Below are positions 4,840-23,760 of a stretch of DNA of 38,217 nucleotides, piece by piece. The stretch spans positions 1 through 38,217 of IMG/VR virus record IMGVR_UViG_2547132077_000001, one strand, 5' to 3'. The number at the start of each line of letters is the position of its first letter. Position 1 is the first letter of the stretch. The notes beneath the pieces are model-generated. The model was not told the origin of the DNA. It was given only the letters and a program-made list of their open reading frames with translations, and did no database searches. A program made the position numbers and the translations under genes. Origin of the DNA: a virus (lineage: Duplodnaviria > Heunggongvirae > Uroviricota > Caudoviricetes).

Positions 4840-4907
4840 GTCAATATTTCCTAATCCGATTTGTTGATGCCGAAGCCCTGACTGTTACAGCAGTTGGGGC
4901 TTCAACT

Positions 4908-10595: not shown

Positions 10596-11440
10596 TGCTC
10601 CGCGATTATCTTGATGATTGTGGCAGTAAACGCCGCACCATTTGACTGAATGGTTAACGTACTGCCATTTGTGGCAAGAAAGCCGTCTTTATCCACGCTG
10701 AAGAACGTAGCTAACAGGATGTTGTCGGTTGTTGTCGCCGAGTTGCGACTGCTTACCAGTGTGTCAGGAACAGAACCGGAAAATGTTAGCTGCATTGACC
10801 TGTTGGCGGTTCCGCTGGGCCAAGTCCCGACAATCGACAGCTTGAAGAACAAGGTTTTGTTCTCGTTGAACACAACCATCTTGTTGTTAACAGTGTCGAA
10901 GAATGGTGCCAACGTCCCGGATGACGGCGTGAGCGTTTTCAGCAGGCTAACAAGGTTGGTCGGCGCTGTCGGGATGGTTACAGATACGCCAGAGTAAACA
11001 ACCTCCGACTTCTTGCGAGTAGTGGCATACTCCAGAGCATCGATGCGCGTTTCATGGTCTGAAACCTGCGATTCCAGCGACTGAACTCTGGTATCAAGCG
11101 ACGCAATATCGCTTTCATTCTGAGCGATTCGCGTTTCATGTTCCTGAAGAGTTGATTCTGCCTGGCTGATTCGCTCCTCATGATTAACAAGCGTTGCTTC
11201 CGCAGCAGAAATTCGCTGCTCATGGTCAGCGAGAATCACATCCTGCTCATCGTTCCTGACCTGTGCATCATAAGCGCCCTGTCCGGCCTCGTTGGCTTTG
11301 TTAGCCACGTTACCAACATCAGTGCCCTGTGCGATAACGTAAAGCAGATACGACTGCGAGAAGATATTGCGTGGAAGGACTGATGTGTCGAGCCGTGTAG
11401 CCTGAATGATTACTGGCACATTGAGATTCGAATCCGCCAT
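10592..11440 (-). CDS. Tail needle (P22 gp26-like) with extended C-terminal knob domain
   Basis: N-terminus [43 protein letters not shown] matches the P22 gp26 N-terminus as recalled; heptad coiled-coil middle; 282 aa is longer than P22 gp26, consistent with a knob. Confidence 0.85.
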
Positions 11441-12858
11441 TACTCAATCCTTATCTGGCAGCCAGACAGAGTGACAGGTGACTTCGTGATAACGCGCAAT
11501 TTGAAGCCAATGTTTTTCCTGATGCGCCCTACTCGCTTCCACAAAACGCGTTTGTCGTAAACGAACGGTTCATTCTGCTCAATCATCTTTTCACGCCCGT
11601 AATTTATGCCGTCAGTGGTTGCAGAGAGAAAAAGGCGGTCAGCGTACTGCGCAACGCCAGTGGATGATTCCACCTCCAGATCGAAGCATCTGGCGTTATC
11701 CGCTTTGAACAACGGAGTAAACAGCAGGTGTTCCTGCTGCTTGTCGTACTGGCTGCTGATATCGAACTGCAATTTCCCGGTCACGGATTCCAGCTTATCG
11801 CCGCACGTTATCTGATTGCCTTCGTAAATGAAATCGATAGCGCGGTACACATCGTCATACAGGCCTGTTTTCAGCACACACCATTGCGGACCATTGGCAC
11901 TTGAAGATGCGTCGTACACGAGTACATGGCGCGGAAGGTGGATAATCAGCAGCTCATGAGCATCAAACCGCAGCGATTCCATCACACCATCAGCCAGTTC
12001 ATCAGCAGTGTAGGAGCGGAGAATTTTCTCAATGCTCGCGCTGGCGATTGGTGACACCTGACCGGAGCCGATGATATATACAGACGGTGCACCTGTTGCC
12101 GGATTGCTGATGAAAGCATAGGAATCAGCAAACGGCGTTTTGCAGTAAGTCCCGGCGATGCCTTTTTGCACCATCAGTGATGGCTGCGCGACATACAAAG
12201 CAGCACCAACGGTGGTTGCGCCAGTCAGGGAGAAATATTCAATAGTCGATGAACCAAAGCAGACGATGAAGTCTCGCCATGTTCCGATGCCGAGGATACC
12301 GTCCGGCTGCGATTCTGCGCGATATTGTGCGCTGTAACGGTCAGGATGCGATTCGTCTTCAAGGTCAGTGATAAACCATGAATCAGAGCCGTCTTTTGAC
12401 CACGCATAACGCCCACGTAAGCGCGTAATGTCACGAACAGAACCTAACTCATACTGAGTGAATCCGCTGTCTGTAGGCCAGTTTGAGACGGTTTTAACCG
12501 TACCATCATAGCGATACTCGACCAGTTGACCATTAACGCCTACCGCCTGTGATGTTCGACCATGCGCCATTGATACGCGACCACTTCCGGCAACATTACC
12601 GACTTCGCTTTCTCCTTTGTACAGCTTGCCACCACACACGCGATAAACAGCATTCTGCGCCATGTTGTACTCGACGCCGCGCGATACACCGTTCACATCA
12701 GAGCGTTTGGCAATGCCCGGGAATGAGCGAAGATATCCGCTGCTGTTGAGGATTTCTTTGGGTGTAGCCAGCATATTCACTGGCAGATAGTCGATATAGT
12801 CGGCGTTTCGAAAGTCTTTGCCGACACCTTTCATAAGCGGAAGTTGCTGAATCGGCAT
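11440..12858 (-). CDS. Tail hub / portal-closure protein, P22 gp10-like
   Basis: 472 aa; synteny between gp4-like and tail needle. Confidence 0.8.
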
Positions 12859-12866
12859 TTATTCAC

Positions 12867-13349
12867 CTATGCGTTTGGGATATCGCCATCAATCATAGGG
12901 AGATCGCCTGGATAATATCGGTCAGATGTAAACACGTCATATTTATTACCCTGTCCTACAGGAAAATCTCCACGTCGTCGCATTGAAGGAACAACCAGAG
13001 TGTCGGTCATCAAGGCATCATATGAGCGTTGGGCGTTACTGAGAACTTGCGGAGTTGGCTCAAGGCTGTAATCAGATAGCATTCTCAGCAATAACTGATA
13101 GCCTACTGCGTGTTTGTATTTTCTTGGAAGACCTGACTCATCATCTGGTAATGGCTGCTCATCTCCAGTTGCGAAAGCGTAACCAATGTCGCCGGGGTTA
13201 ATCATCCACTCGGACATCATATCTTCCAGATCATTTACACCATCTTCAATTGATTGCGGCTCAACATCAGTCAGCGATGCATTAGAAGCAATAGCAAACT
13301 TACGAAGCGCAAAAAGGACGATCTCACCCTTTGTCAGTACTGTTGCCAT
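12867..13349 (-). CDS. Head-tail adaptor, P22 gp4-like
   Basis: 160 aa; N-terminal ALRKF..AS.A.LTDVEPQS motif matches P22 gp4 as recalled. Confidence 0.8.
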   Translation of the reverse strand: MATVLTKGEIVLFALRKFAIASNASLTDVEPQSIEDGVNDLEDMMSEWMINPGDIGYAFATGDEQPLPDDESGLPRKYKHAVGYQLLLRMLSDYSLEPTPQVLSNAQRSYDALMTDTLVVPSMRRRGDFPVGQGNKYDVFTSDRYYPGDLPMIDGDIPNA

Positions 13350-13509
13350 TGTCTGCCGCCTTACTAGCTCGCTTACTGGTCGGTTTCAATTCATCAACTG
13401 AGGCAACAAAGCCCAACTTTTCGAAAAACTGGAAGTCTTTTTCTGCGATAACGGCCTGTACATGCCCGGATTCGTTATCTGCGGCAAGGAATACACTCAT
13501 GCGATCCAT
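13324..13509 (-). CDS. Small hypothetical protein between the coat and gp4 genes
   Basis: 61-aa ORF with RBS AAGGAAA before the ATG at 13509, just downstream of the post-coat hairpin; overlaps the gp4 start in another frame. Confidence 0.4.
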   Translation of the reverse strand: MDRMSVFLAADNESGHVQAVIAEKDFQFFEKLGFVASVDELKPTSKRASKAADNGNSTDKG

Positions 13510-13516
13510 ATTGTTT

Positions 13517-13547
13517 CCTTAAAACATAAAAGGGGCGTAAGCCCCTT
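13517..13547 (-). terminator. Intrinsic (probably partial) terminator after the coat gene
   Basis: On the minus strand: AAGGGGC-ttac-GCCCCTT followed by TTATGTTTT, immediately after the coat stop. Confidence 0.55.
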
Positions 13548-13551
13548 GTTA

Positions 13552-14823
13552 TTACGGATTACCGAAGAACTGACCGCCCATGTGAGGGTTAAAGCACACA
13601 TATGCAGGCAGTAAGTCGAAGCGCATTTTTTGCACGTTGGCATCGCCATCTGCGTATTTATGTACGCGGATGGAGAAACCTTCATATGTTGCAACAGCAG
13701 AATCAATACTGTGCAGTTTCGGCAGTGGGATAGAGCCAAGTCCACAGAAGAACTTGTTATAGAACAGGTTTGGCTTCATTGTCTGGCTAGCAGTGCCTAC
13801 TACAGATACGGCATCGCCTGCCGCTACCTGACGACTTACAGAGTTGTACTGCGGGTTTGTAGTGTCATAAATCGGAACACCAGAAAGCGTAACCGTCACA
13901 TCGCCACTGCCGTCTGAATCAGCATCAGCAGTAACCGTTGCAGTGAAGCTAATTGGTGTGGCTCCGTTATACAACGCCTGTTTGGTCTGCTGTTGCAGCC
14001 AGTAGGTATTGGTGAATTTAACCTGATCACCAGCTTTCAGAAAACCTGTAACGCTGGCTGTCGCTCCGGTCAATGTTACAGTGAACTGGTATGAGTCTTT
14101 AACTGCGTTATAGGTAACATTTGGCTGTGTTTTGACTGTCAGTGTTCCGCCAAATGCCCCCTGCGTACGAGAGGCAAGCCCATTAGACATCAGTGCGCGA
14201 ATGCCGCCAAAATTGGTTGGGATCTGTGCATTCTCCCATGCAGTACGAACCAATTGATCTGAAGCGTGCAAACCAGTCTGCGCATCAGCAAGTCGCTGTG
14301 CAGACCATGGATCCATTACAGCATAGTTTTCACCTTCATTAACGCCGAGGTCTTTCAGGAAAGATGCCGTCTGCGCAACATCAGACCATTTGGTGATTGG
14401 AGTATTGGGGCTACCAAGTGACAACGCACCGTTATTCATCATGAAGTGAGCAAGCTCTGTTTCAAGGTCGGTAACGATTCGCTGGCGAACCGGCGCGAGA
14501 ATTTCTTCCAGCTGGTTAAGCTTGATCGCTTCCTCCAGTTGCTGATATTCAACAGCAACAGTGATGTAGTTACCTACACGCCCCGTAGCTTTACCTGAGA
14601 TCAGGTTGTTTTTATTTTGCCCTGAAATATCACCAGTGGGAGTACGGAGGGATGAGAATTGATGCGGACGTTTAAAGCTAACGCTATCGCCAGTGCTGGA
14701 GTTGATTTCACCTGCCAGCAACTGACGGTCTACGGTTTTCGCCAGAACTAAATCTGACATAAAACCCGGAAGGAATTTTTTCAGAACGATTTGACTGACG
14801 TTACTGTCGAGATTGTTAGGCAT
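13552..14823 (-). CDS. Major capsid (coat) protein, Sf6-type
   Basis: 423 aa; position downstream of the scaffold gene. Sequence unlike P22 coat, so the Sf6-type label rests on length and context. Confidence 0.85.
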   Translation of the reverse strand: MPNNLDSNVSQIVLKKFLPGFMSDLVLAKTVDRQLLAGEINSSTGDSVSFKRPHQFSSLRTPTGDISGQNKNNLISGKATGRVGNYITVAVEYQQLEEAIKLNQLEEILAPVRQRIVTDLETELAHFMMNNGALSLGSPNTPITKWSDVAQTASFLKDLGVNEGENYAVMDPWSAQRLADAQTGLHASDQLVRTAWENAQIPTNFGGIRALMSNGLASRTQGAFGGTLTVKTQPNVTYNAVKDSYQFTVTLTGATASVTGFLKAGDQVKFTNTYWLQQQTKQALYNGATPISFTATVTADADSDGSGDVTVTLSGVPIYDTTNPQYNSVSRQVAAGDAVSVVGTASQTMKPNLFYNKFFCGLGSIPLPKLHSIDSAVATYEGFSIRVHKYADGDANVQKMRFDLLPAYVCFNPHMGGQFFGNP

Positions 14824-14834
14824 TTATCTTTTCC

Positions 14835-15719
14835 TTATTCGATTTTTGCGCCGGGGCATAATTTGTTGAATTCGTCTTGTTTCGCATCAGCACCGCCACC
14901 ACGTACTTCCGGCTCTGGCTTGATGGCTTTCTTTGGTTTTGGAGCAAGGCTTACCTGTTTGCTAATCTGCCCCAAGAGGAATGCTGCGCGAATTGGATCT
15001 GTCTCAGCGGCTACACGCTGGCGTAATTGCTGACTCTTACCTAAGCCATAGGCGAGTAGTTCAGAGCCTTCGTCTGCACAGTGAATGATGATTTCCTGCT
15101 GAATTGGTGGTAGCTCACTAAGAACAATGGCTTCCATTTCCTGATAATCTTTCACAGGAAGTTTGGCTGCCCGTTGTTTATGCGCTTCTACCCTTTGCTG
15201 GAAACGCTGCTGGTATTCCTGTTGCTGACGTAGTTTTTGTTGCTGCTGCTGTTCGACACGGCCTTTTTTCTCATGCCAATCAGTCAATGCCTGTTCAAAC
15301 GCCTGTTCGTCATAATCACACGACTCAAGAGTCGGTTTTGGTGGAATAGCGTCTGGTTGTGGTTGCTGATGTTCCGCTGGCTTGGCTAATGCTTCCTCAA
15401 GCTGGCGGCGCAACTCACGGTTTTCTTTCTGTGTTTCTTTGAAGCCTTTGCGAAGATCTTTCACCCATTGCGGTGCAGGTTGCCCGTCAATGTGATCATC
15501 ATCGTCAGCGTTAAGCTGAATTTCTTCATCACCAATACGCAAGGCGTAATCTTCTGGTGTCTCTTCGGTTTTTTCAGGCTCAGTTGCCACCTCTTTACCG
15601 TTGTCATCCTGGCTTTCATTCTCAGGCTGTGACTCTGTTTGGATGATGGTTTCTTCTGCATTTTCCTGTGTTTCAGACAGGTCAATAACCTGACCGTCGA
15701 TGATCAGTTCGTTTTCCAT
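14835..15719 (-). CDS. Scaffolding protein
   Basis: 294 aa, highly acidic and Gln/Glu-rich, predicted coiled coil; located between portal and coat. Confidence 0.8.
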   Translation of the reverse strand: MENELIIDGQVIDLSETQENAEETIIQTESQPENESQDDNGKEVATEPEKTEETPEDYALRIGDEEIQLNADDDDHIDGQPAPQWVKDLRKGFKETQKENRELRRQLEEALAKPAEHQQPQPDAIPPKPTLESCDYDEQAFEQALTDWHEKKGRVEQQQQQKLRQQQEYQQRFQQRVEAHKQRAAKLPVKDYQEMEAIVLSELPPIQQEIIIHCADEGSELLAYGLGKSQQLRQRVAAETDPIRAAFLLGQISKQVSLAPKPKKAIKPEPEVRGGGADAKQDEFNKLCPGAKIE

Positions 15720-22704: not shown

Positions 22705-22995
22705 GTCTTACCCCCAATAAGGGGATTTGCTCTATTTAATTAGGAATAAGGTCGATTACTGATAGAACAAATCCAGGCTACTGTGTTTAGTAATCAGATT
22801 TGTTCGTGACCGATATGCACGAGCAAAACGGCATGAGGTTGTTAGCGCAACCTCATGCCACCCGCTTTCACGAAGCCAGCCATTGCGCTGGTTTTCTTTT
22901 ATGCAAAGCACACCGCACCGTAGCCACAGCGGATAAGGTGATTATTTTTGTCTGTCTGGTATTTGGTTTGATGTGCTTTCAGAAAGGTCGTGATT

Positions 22996-23030
22996 AAAAC
23001 GCAAAAGCCCCGAGCTATTAACTCAGGGCT
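22996..23030 (-). terminator. Candidate tR'-like terminator of the short PR' leader RNA
   Basis: Imperfect hairpin (GCCCCGAG/CTCAGGGC with bulges) followed on the minus strand by TTTTGCGTTTT, about 30-60 nt downstream of the predicted PR' start. Confidence 0.45.
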
Positions 23031-23065
23031 TTATTTAACGAGTGCATTTATCCATCGTTGGGTCA

Positions 23066-23094
23066 AATTTACCCAACTTTATTCAAAAAGTCAA
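23066..23094 (-). promoter_or_regulatory. Late promoter PR' (-35 TTGACT, 17-bp spacer, -10 TAAATT) with the Q-utilisation region
   Basis: On the minus strand: TTGACTTTTTGAATAAAGTTGGGTAAATTTGAC, closely matching the lambda PR' region as recalled; lies between Q and S. Confidence 0.8.
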
Positions 23095-23136: not shown

Positions 23137-23760
23137 CTAACGTGTGACTGCGTTCAAAATGTTGTCTGCGATTGACTCTTCCTTGTGGCATTGCACCACC
23201 AGAGCGTCATACAGCGGCTTAACAGTGCGTGACCAGGTGGGTTGGGTAAGGTTTGGGATTAGCATCGTCACAGCGCGATATGCTGCGCTTGCAGGCATCC
23301 TTGAATAACCGACGCCTTTACATCTTCCGCACTCTTTCTCAACAACTCTCCCCCACTGCTCTGTTTTTGCTATATCAACCGCACGACCTGTACCGTGGCA
23401 ATCTCTGCATCTTGCGCCCGGCGTCGCGGCACTACGGCAATAATCCGCATAAGCGAATGTTGCGAGTACTTGCAGTACCTTTGCCTTAGTATTTCCTTCA
23501 AGCTTTGCAACGCCACGGTATTTCCCCGATACCTTGTGTGCAAATTGCATCAGATAGTTGATAGCCTTTTGTTTGTCGTTCTGGCTGAGTTCATGCTTAC
23601 CGCAGAATGCAGCCATTCCGAATCCGGCTTGTGATTGCGCCATCCCCATAGCAGCCATCACATCAGTACCGGAAAGAGAGTCAGAAGCCGTAGCCCGTGG
23701 TGAGTCGCTCATCATCGGGCTTTTTGGCGAATGAAATTTAGCTACGCTTTCGAGTCTCAT
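23137..23760 (-). CDS. Q: Late antiterminator Q (lambda-type)
   Basis: 207 aa; matches lambda Q as recalled (Cys/His zinc motif CRDCHGTG...CGRCKG); directly upstream of PR'. Confidence 0.9.
   Translation of the reverse strand: MRLESVAKFHSPKSPMMSDSPRATASDSLSGTDVMAAMGMAQSQAGFGMAAFCGKHELSQNDKQKAINYLMQFAHKVSGKYRGVAKLEGNTKAKVLQVLATFAYADYCRSAATPGARCRDCHGTGRAVDIAKTEQWGRVVEKECGRCKGVGYSRMPASAAYRAVTMLIPNLTQPTWSRTVKPLYDALVVQCHKEESIADNILNAVTR

Follow-up and report, generated by a model that had tools for sequence, protein, structure and literature searches.

A conserved hairpin and a small overlapping gene between the coat and adaptor genes of a P22-like phage

The P22 virion is built with hundreds of copies of the coat and scaffold proteins and with about a dozen or fewer of the head-completion proteins. 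In a 38,217-nucleotide (nt) stretch of viral DNA, positions 1 to 38,217 of IMG/VR record IMGVR_UViG_2547132077_000001 (Caudoviricetes), which is referred to here as the window, the boundary between the coat gene and the first head-completion gene is occupied by a hairpin with a T-rich tract and by a 61-codon open reading frame (ORF) that runs into the head-to-tail adaptor gene. This arrangement raises the question of what an element resembling a transcription terminator does in the middle of a set of late genes, and whether the short ORF that follows it is a gene. The answer that we consider probable is that the hairpin acts as a leaky terminator and transcript stabilizer inside a late operon antiterminated by a Q-type protein, and that the ORF is a real gene probably coupled to the adaptor gene in translation.

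The window derives from an Sf6/HK620-like, P22-like (Lederbergvirus) phage with minus-strand late genes, and the 2.1 kilobases (kb) surrounding the junction share 99% identity with Shigella phage Sf6 and coliphage HK620. Coordinates are given in plus-strand numbering throughout, and the coat, hairpin and small-gene features are read on the minus strand. A first-pass annotation made from the letters of the window had placed the hairpin between a coat gene and a gp4 gene, and both assignments are confirmed: the major coat gene (13552..14823, 423 amino acids) is of the Sf6 gp5 / HK620 gene 5 type and matches Pfam PF11651, P22_CoatProtein, with an E-value of 6e-142, and the adaptor gene (12867..13349, minus strand), a homologue of P22 gp4 and Sf6 gp7 and the first head-completion gene 3' of the hairpin, matches PF11650, P22_Tail-4, with an E-value of 1.7e-74.

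Anatomy and conservation of the hairpin

The hairpin AAGGGGC-TTAC-GCCCCTT (13530..13547) begins 4 nt after the coat stop and consists of a 5' arm AAGGGGC (13547..13541), a 4-nt loop TTAC (13540..13537) and a 3' arm GCCCCTT (13536..13530). Its stem has 7 base pairs (bp), five of them G-C, and on its own it has a folding free energy (dG) of -11.6 kcal/mol. The tract TTATGTTTT (13521..13529), with 7 T in 9 positions, abuts the stem and is followed by the Shine-Dalgarno (SD) sequence AAGGAAA of the small ORF (13514..13520), 4 nt 5' of its ATG (13509..13507); the spacing from the end of the hairpin to this ATG is 20 nt. With a G+C-rich stem, a short loop and a U-rich, though interrupted, run directly 3', the element has, as judged from its sequence, the complete anatomy of an intrinsic (Rho-independent) terminator. 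A GC-rich hairpin and U-tract after the coat stop had been proposed in the first-pass annotation, and an identical element is annotated by the depositors of the Sf6 and HK620 records. The coat gene itself ends in two in-frame stop codons in tandem (TAATAA, 13554..13549).

In a 12-kb scan of the late genes this hairpin ranked first among the terminator-like sites, of which there were 18 against 12.3 +/- 3.9 in shuffled sequences, an excess that is not clear. The fold of the 81 nt around it has a z-score of only -2.46, and an Rfam scan gave no match at the hairpin. Both the hairpin and the ORF are raised above chance because they are conserved, the former through covariation of its stem and the latter through purifying selection.

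Conservation of the hairpin was assessed across 23 loci, which included the window, Sf6, Salmonella phage NM-3, APSE-1, Salmonella phage MS2 LVA, a Vibrio phage, P22 and epsilon34, together with prophages of Atlantibacter, Erwinia, Yersinia, Yokenella, Arsenophonus and Proteus and eight uncultured viral contigs. A hairpin follows the coat stop in all 23 (dG -9.3 to -17.1 kcal/mol), after a gap that varies from 4 to 31 nt, and in every case 4-8 T fall within the 9 nt 3' of the stem. The distance from the end of the hairpin to the ATG of the small ORF is 15-23 nt in 22 of the 23 loci and 30 nt in the Vibrio phage. In addition to this set, CUS-3, which has the third type of P22-like coat, carries GGGGC-TTCG-GCCCC followed by ATTTTTATT at the equivalent position. 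The combination of hairpin and T-run is thus seen with all three P22-like coat types, as well as in uncultured phages, and the coat proteins of the P22-like lineages are reported to be only 14-28% identical (PMC2629481).

The sequence of the stem changes from lineage to lineage, its two arms reading GGGGC/GCCCC, GGGCGC/GTGCCC, GGGAGC/GCTCCC, GGGGGC/GCTCCC, AAGCCTCTC/GAGGGGCTT, AAGGGAC../..GTCCCTT or GAGGGGCGA/TCGCCCCTT, and the loop is a C(UUCG)G tetraloop in most relatives and UUAC in the window, Sf6 and HK620. Covariation was evaluated on an alignment of 11 in-register sequences and 7 pairs, from which the Vibrio row was excluded, its hairpin having been misaligned by MAFFT. The stem columns are paired in 92.2% of cells, compared with 35-70% when the partner columns are slid, and changes on both sides occur at two of the seven pairs (A-U to G-C or the reverse at one; G-C, A-U and C-G with a G.U intermediate at the other). 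The covariation score was reached by none of 500 shuffles. These comparisons argue that the hairpin has been selected as a structure and not as a sequence; drawn from 11 sequences and 7 pairs, this support is of modest size but points clearly in one direction.

One locus departs from the common arrangement. In a Symbiopectobacterium metagenome-assembled genome neither a coat gene nor a hairpin precedes the small ORF and adaptor gene (L090, 2380-2686), and this locus is probably a degraded or rearranged prophage.

The small gene and its product

The 61-codon ORF (13324..13509, minus strand) corresponds to gene 6 of Sf6 and hkbT of HK620, and its 6.6-kDa product matches PHROG 3251 from end to end (residues 1-61 on profile positions 1-61 of 61; E-value 7.7e-42); Pfam gave no match to it at E-values up to 10. 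A length of 61 codons is unremarkable on its own, and the case for a gene comes from comparison. For unsaturated pairs the ratio of nonsynonymous to synonymous substitution rates (dN/dS) over the conserved core, codons 1-43, is 0.04-0.20. Within this core, 42 of 43 codons vary at the third position, 24 at the first and 18 at the second, and each of the five other frames is interrupted in at least one relative. The conserved start is the first ATG (position 4 is M in the lineage of the window and K in others), and SD-like purine runs are present in the spacers printed for the compared loci. On this comparative evidence the ORF is a real protein-coding gene under purifying selection. Its description in the first-pass annotation, with a ribosome-binding site (AAGGAAA), a start at 13509 and an overlap of 26 nt with the gp4-type gene in another frame, proved accurate in each particular, and the conservation in P22-like phages on which that annotation had made the ORF depend is plain, the frames being intact and free of stops.

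Homologues with 42-97% identity occur in Sf6, HK620, other coliphages, Salmonella phages, all APSE phages of Hamiltonella and Vibrio phages, and in prophages of Serratia, Klebsiella, Citrobacter, Salmonella, Yokenella, Symbiopectobacterium, Providencia, Proteus, Arsenophonus and also Yersinia. An initial scan of viral contigs returned copies that were 95-100% identical and added no diversity, and one IMG/VR contig (L008) encodes a protein identical to that of the window. A profile search of 1.84 billion representatives recovered 98 clusters (at 50% identity) with E-values of 1e-3 or better, nearly all of 48-150 amino acids. Wherever the context was available it was a P22-type coat gene, the small gene and a gp4-type adaptor gene, and a small post-coat gene was present in every P22-like phage examined. 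Two candidate remote relatives, from Competibacteraceae (L096) and Saprospiraceae (L097), were rejected as chance matches within unrelated large genes. A literature search for hkbT returned nothing relevant, the matches to orf69 were to the ORF69 of other phages, and a cryogenic electron microscopy paper on the Sf6 tail does not mention gp6. In the APSE-1 record (AF157835; L004) the coat, small-gene and adaptor region is annotated with the opposite-strand ORFs P25, P26 and P29 (2118-2785, 3413-3703); the conserved small gene, on the other strand at 2501-2692, is unannotated there.

The 3' end of the small gene overlaps the 5' end of the adaptor gene by 26 nt (13324..13349), with the adaptor in the +1 frame, and an AAGG lies within the small ORF 9 nt 5' of the adaptor ATG (13362..13359). 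Among the junctions compared (the window and loci L001-L007, L088-L095, L098-L109, L111 and L112) the small ORF overlaps the adaptor start by 26, 20, 17, 11 or 8 nt or is separated from it by a gap of 1 or 4 nt. In the window, ribosomes translating the small gene would run 26 nt into the adaptor gene before reaching the stop codon, and in doing so would probably open or feed the adaptor start; on this arrangement of signals the two genes are probably translationally coupled. The last eight codons of the small gene overlie the conserved N-terminus of the adaptor (M-A-T-x-L-T-K-G-E), and their conservation is therefore partly imposed by the other frame. Throughout the compared junctions the adaptor keeps the +1 frame with respect to the small ORF, the overlaps and gaps all being equal to 2 modulo 3, a constancy that may reflect mere descent with in-frame insertions and deletions.

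The predicted protein is composed of an acidic folded core, residues 1-43, with a beta-hairpin and a helix, and a basic, K/R-rich disordered tail, residues 44-61. AlphaFold2, supplied with a 33-sequence alignment, predicts for the core two strands (residues 3-9 and 16-22), a helix spanning 23-31 and a brief turn around 38-40, with a predicted local distance difference test (pLDDT) score of 87-92, and predicts residues 47-61 to be disordered. Residues S5, F7, G15, Q18, V20, I21 and G33-F34-V35 are invariant. Across 199 family members the core has a median charge of -3 and the tail a median of +2, with 27% K+R. An AT-hook, with its R-G-R-P core, was considered for the tail and rejected, since the tail of the window protein, KPTSKRASKAADNGNSTDKG, contains no GRP; a strict GRP, the RGRP AT-hook core, is found in 5 of the 199 tails and looser RGR or KRGRK-like motifs in 69. 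The window reads KRASK (codons 46-49, 13363-13374, minus strand) where Sf6 and HK620 read KRGRK, two nonsynonymous changes that remove Gly-Arg from the most AT-hook-like stretch. In the Vibrio phages 234P9 and 340E47.2 (L005 and L007, 2489-2836) the protein has 115 amino acids, with a long acidic extension of helix-like character (EEAELAELEALKAEAKALGLKGYG...) separating the core from the end, and similar extensions occur in several metagenomic members.

Late transcription through the hairpin

HK620 is annotated as having one late operon, which extends from pR' through the lysis genes and 3, 2, 1, 8, 5, tGP5, hkbT, 4, 10, 26, 14, 7, 20, 16 and 9 to tR'. The corresponding Q/pR'/qut region is represented in the window by a Q-type late antiterminator gene (23137..23760, minus strand; Pfam PF03589, Antiterm, E-value 1.3e-57) and by a pR'-like promoter (23094..23066, minus strand), a promoter-like site with a strong hairpin downstream. 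Flanking the coat and adaptor genes on the same strand are the scaffold gene (15719..14835; Pfam Phage-scaffold, E-value 1.6e-9) and a gp10 homologue (12858..11440; Pfam Phage_stabilise, E-value 2.7e-300). The 12-kb scan found no promoter-like site between the hairpin and the adaptor start. In a single Q-antiterminated operon with no intervening promoter the head-completion and ejection genes must be transcribed through the hairpin, and termination at the hairpin can therefore be partial at most.

Under these constraints three roles can be envisaged for the hairpin: termination of a fraction of the transcripts, post-transcriptional stabilization of 3' ends, or the stopping of unmodified polymerases only. 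We favor partial termination in which the 3' end left behind is also protected, because the T-run, which a pure barrier to exonucleases does not need, is kept at every locus, and because the site matches the stoichiometric step between the procapsid and head-completion proteins. The hairpin may thus attenuate transcription of the genes beyond it. A fraction of late transcripts would end at the hairpin and the stable structure would shield their 3' ends, whereby the scaffold and coat mRNA would exceed that of the low-copy adaptor, plug and ejection proteins, and polymerases reading past the hairpin would supply all of the essential downstream genes. The small ORF would be translated from its own SD sequence directly 3' of the U-tract, and its translation would open or feed the adaptor start. 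For its product our best guess is an accessory, dispensable, late role in head completion or DNA packaging.

Several considerations weigh against this reading. In lambda, polymerase modified by Q resists intrinsic terminators, and here too it would be expected to ignore the hairpin; real termination could then be negligible and the hairpin purely post-transcriptional in its effect. The U-tract of the window is interrupted, and its UUAC loop is not the extra-stable UUCG found in most relatives. For the protein, no fold or family match among solved or predicted structures provides a functional lead, and a Foldseek search of BFVD with the small-protein model gave no match at E-values up to 1e-3. 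Finally, a passage in PMC2629481 that cites Eppler et al. 1991 reports that P22 can dispense with its counterpart of the small gene under laboratory conditions, so that any role of the small gene must be subtle.

It is possible, and the first of these points would favor it, that the hairpin never terminates late transcription: the Q-modified polymerase would pass it wholly, and the structure would serve as a barrier to 3'-to-5' exonucleases after endonucleolytic cleavage downstream, stabilizing the scaffold-coat mRNA. Besides the Q-antitermination of the operon, this explanation can draw on the very stable C(UUCG)G tetraloop carried by most relatives, hairpins of that kind being mRNA-stabilizing elements in intercistronic regions of phages, and on the P22 record, where the element is labeled simply a 'stem_loop' with a position like that of the HK97 and lambda stem-loops. 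It is harder to reconcile with the 4-8 T after the stem in 23 of 23 loci, which an exonuclease barrier would not need and which form the defining half of an intrinsic terminator.

A translational role seems unlikely. The hairpin would here insulate the downstream cistrons from the ribosome traffic of the coat gene and hold the SD sequence in a constant structural setting, and the small ORF would chiefly be a coupling leader that sets the amount of adaptor, in keeping with the narrow spacing from hairpin to ATG in 22 of 23 loci and with the constant overlap or abutment of the small ORF and adaptor start in one relative frame. Such a mere leader would not be expected to be under the strong amino-acid constraint indicated by the dN/dS values and invariant residues, or to encode a core that folds confidently in AlphaFold2, and the gap between coat stop and hairpin is variable. 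The same variability counts against masking of the hairpin by a ribosome paused on the coat stop codon, which is unlikely to be a conserved mechanism.

Quite improbable, in our view, is that the hairpin is a safety stop that halts only spurious transcripts not modified by Q, arising from weak internal promoters or read-in, and leaves real late transcription unaffected. In phage L the same intra-operon terminator, a predicted one, lies at the end of the procapsid module of a one-promoter operon, and the roles considered for it are partial termination or the stopping of non-antiterminated transcripts (PMC8022706), the latter being the role at issue. A safety stop would leave unexplained the constant position of the element at the boundary between coat and head-completion genes in every lineage and with three coat types, and the 12-kb scan of the late genes revealed no second convincing intra-operon terminator. 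The notion that the ORF arose by chance within a spacer and yields no protein, which could appeal to the frequency of such lengths by chance in the window and to the lack of a Pfam match, is effectively refuted by frames that stay intact down to 42% identity across many genera, by purifying selection with its codon-position pattern and the breakage of other frames in relatives, and by the SD-like runs of the compared spacers.

Elsewhere in the window, further observations concern the regulatory regions of the phage. At 22929-23094 the window has 74 nt where HK620 has about 667 nt, including the annotated terminator tQ, and just 3' of the pR'-like promoter, at 23032..23004 on the minus strand, there is a hairpin with a 13-bp stem and a T-run. 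At 4841-4907 on the plus strand Rfam matches the sar antisense RNA (RF00262, 65.6 bits, E-value 1.5e-11), which implies a P22-type immI (ant/arc/mnt) region, of which HK620 has remnants only.

Related junctions in P22 and other phages

The slot of the small gene is occupied in P22 by orf69, in epsilon34 by gp6 (186 amino acids) and in CUS-3 by a 62-amino-acid protein (ECRS218_0017). These proteins share an outline: the N-terminal module closes with D-G-W-[LV]-x-H/T-P, and the basic tail behind it terminates within the adaptor gene. The window protein has the same layout, the module end common to both groups being G-[FW]-[VL]. BLASTP of P22 orf69 against the window protein gave no alignment, a narrow-profile hhalign comparison of the window family with orf69 had a non-significant probability of 2.8%, and the two belong to different PHROGs (1175/3769 for orf69 and epsilon34 gp6 and 3251 for the window). 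When a broad profile of 65 sequences was used, residues 19-43 of the window protein aligned with residues 22-46 of orf69 with a probability of 70.8% (E-value 3.8e-5), and the CUS-3 protein aligned in the same register (E-value 9.7e-4). With a local hidden Markov model (HMM) the orf69 family scored 16-20 bits, with 18.5 bits for the match to the P22 orf69 / epsilon34 gp6 group, compared with at most 3.6 bits for 300 shuffles, and the reciprocal local HMM search recovered members of the 'GFVDHPDRL' type. A lower-confidence model of the P22-type protein places a helix at 26-34 and a turn at 41-43, exactly as the profile register predicts. Distant homology between the window protein and P22 orf69 / epsilon34 gp6 is likely on these grounds, short of proof. 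Between its N-terminal module and basic tail, epsilon34 gp6 (L111, 1902-2462) has an insert of ~110 amino acids rich in W, H and E, and P22 orf69 (L098, 6135-6344) is without it.

A wider proposal, which we offer tentatively, is that Sf6 gp6/HkbT, the P22 orf69 / epsilon34 gp6 / phage L orf186 group, the CUS-3 62-amino-acid protein and about 98 clusters from uncultured phages form one ancient family, which would have co-evolved with the coat-terminator-adaptor junction and whose acidic beta-beta-alpha core and basic tail would carry out a conserved, dispensable step leading from packaging to head completion. One possibility for its activity is binding of nucleic acid or of the portal or adaptor, as a functional counterpart of lambda FI, the small non-structural packaging accessory that is encoded by the next gene after the capsid stem-loop of lambda and is a positional analogue of the small gene.

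The closest known systems are those of Sf6 and HK620. The Sf6 record (AF547987) lists a 'terminator; t coat', 'likely to be a transcription terminator', and then gene 6, similar to HKbT, and the HK620 record (AF335538) lists a 'consensus termination sequence', tGP5, after the major capsid transcript and then 'hkbT, unknown'. The hairpin, T-tract, SD sequence, 61-amino-acid ORF and 26-nt overlap are identical to those of the window, and the DNA from coat through hairpin and ORF to adaptor is 99% identical; the window differs in 2-3 residues of the small protein, and the rest of its genome is mosaic relative to HK620. In P22, gene 5 is followed by a putative stem_loop, annotated as located like the HK97 and lambda stem-loops, and then by orf69; the overlap of orf69 with gene 4 is 17 nt. 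The same succession of coat gene, hairpin with T-run, SD sequence and small gene overlapping the adaptor holds for P22, epsilon34 gene 6, phage L orf186 and CUS-3, whose hairpins are near-identical (AGGGGC-TKCG-GCCCCT); epsilon34 and phage L differ by the extra inserted domain of the small protein.

More distant parallels are found outside the P22-like phages. The T7 terminator T-phi, a well-characterized analogue, lies directly 3' of the capsid gene, and reads fall downstream of it (PMC6938266). As in the phage of the window, T-phi follows a gene (gene 10) for a protein required in many subunits and precedes those for parts required in few; the systems differ in that T-phi acts on T7 RNA polymerase in a genome with many late promoters, whereas the hairpin described here would act on host polymerase modified by a lambda-type Q protein and transcribing from a single late promoter. 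The stem-loops that follow the major capsid genes of lambda and HK97, to which the P22 RefSeq annotation refers, resemble the hairpin in position only.

Set against these systems the junction is ordinary, because both of its features are already known: they are annotated in Sf6, HK620 and P22, and for phage L the idea of partial termination beyond the procapsid genes has already been published. The comparison establishes the small ORF as a real, constrained gene. What is mildly new is the structural covariation of the hairpin, the breadth of the small-protein family and its probable merger with the P22 orf69 group, a link that would join two families of 'hypothetical protein' sharing one site in different P22-like phages.

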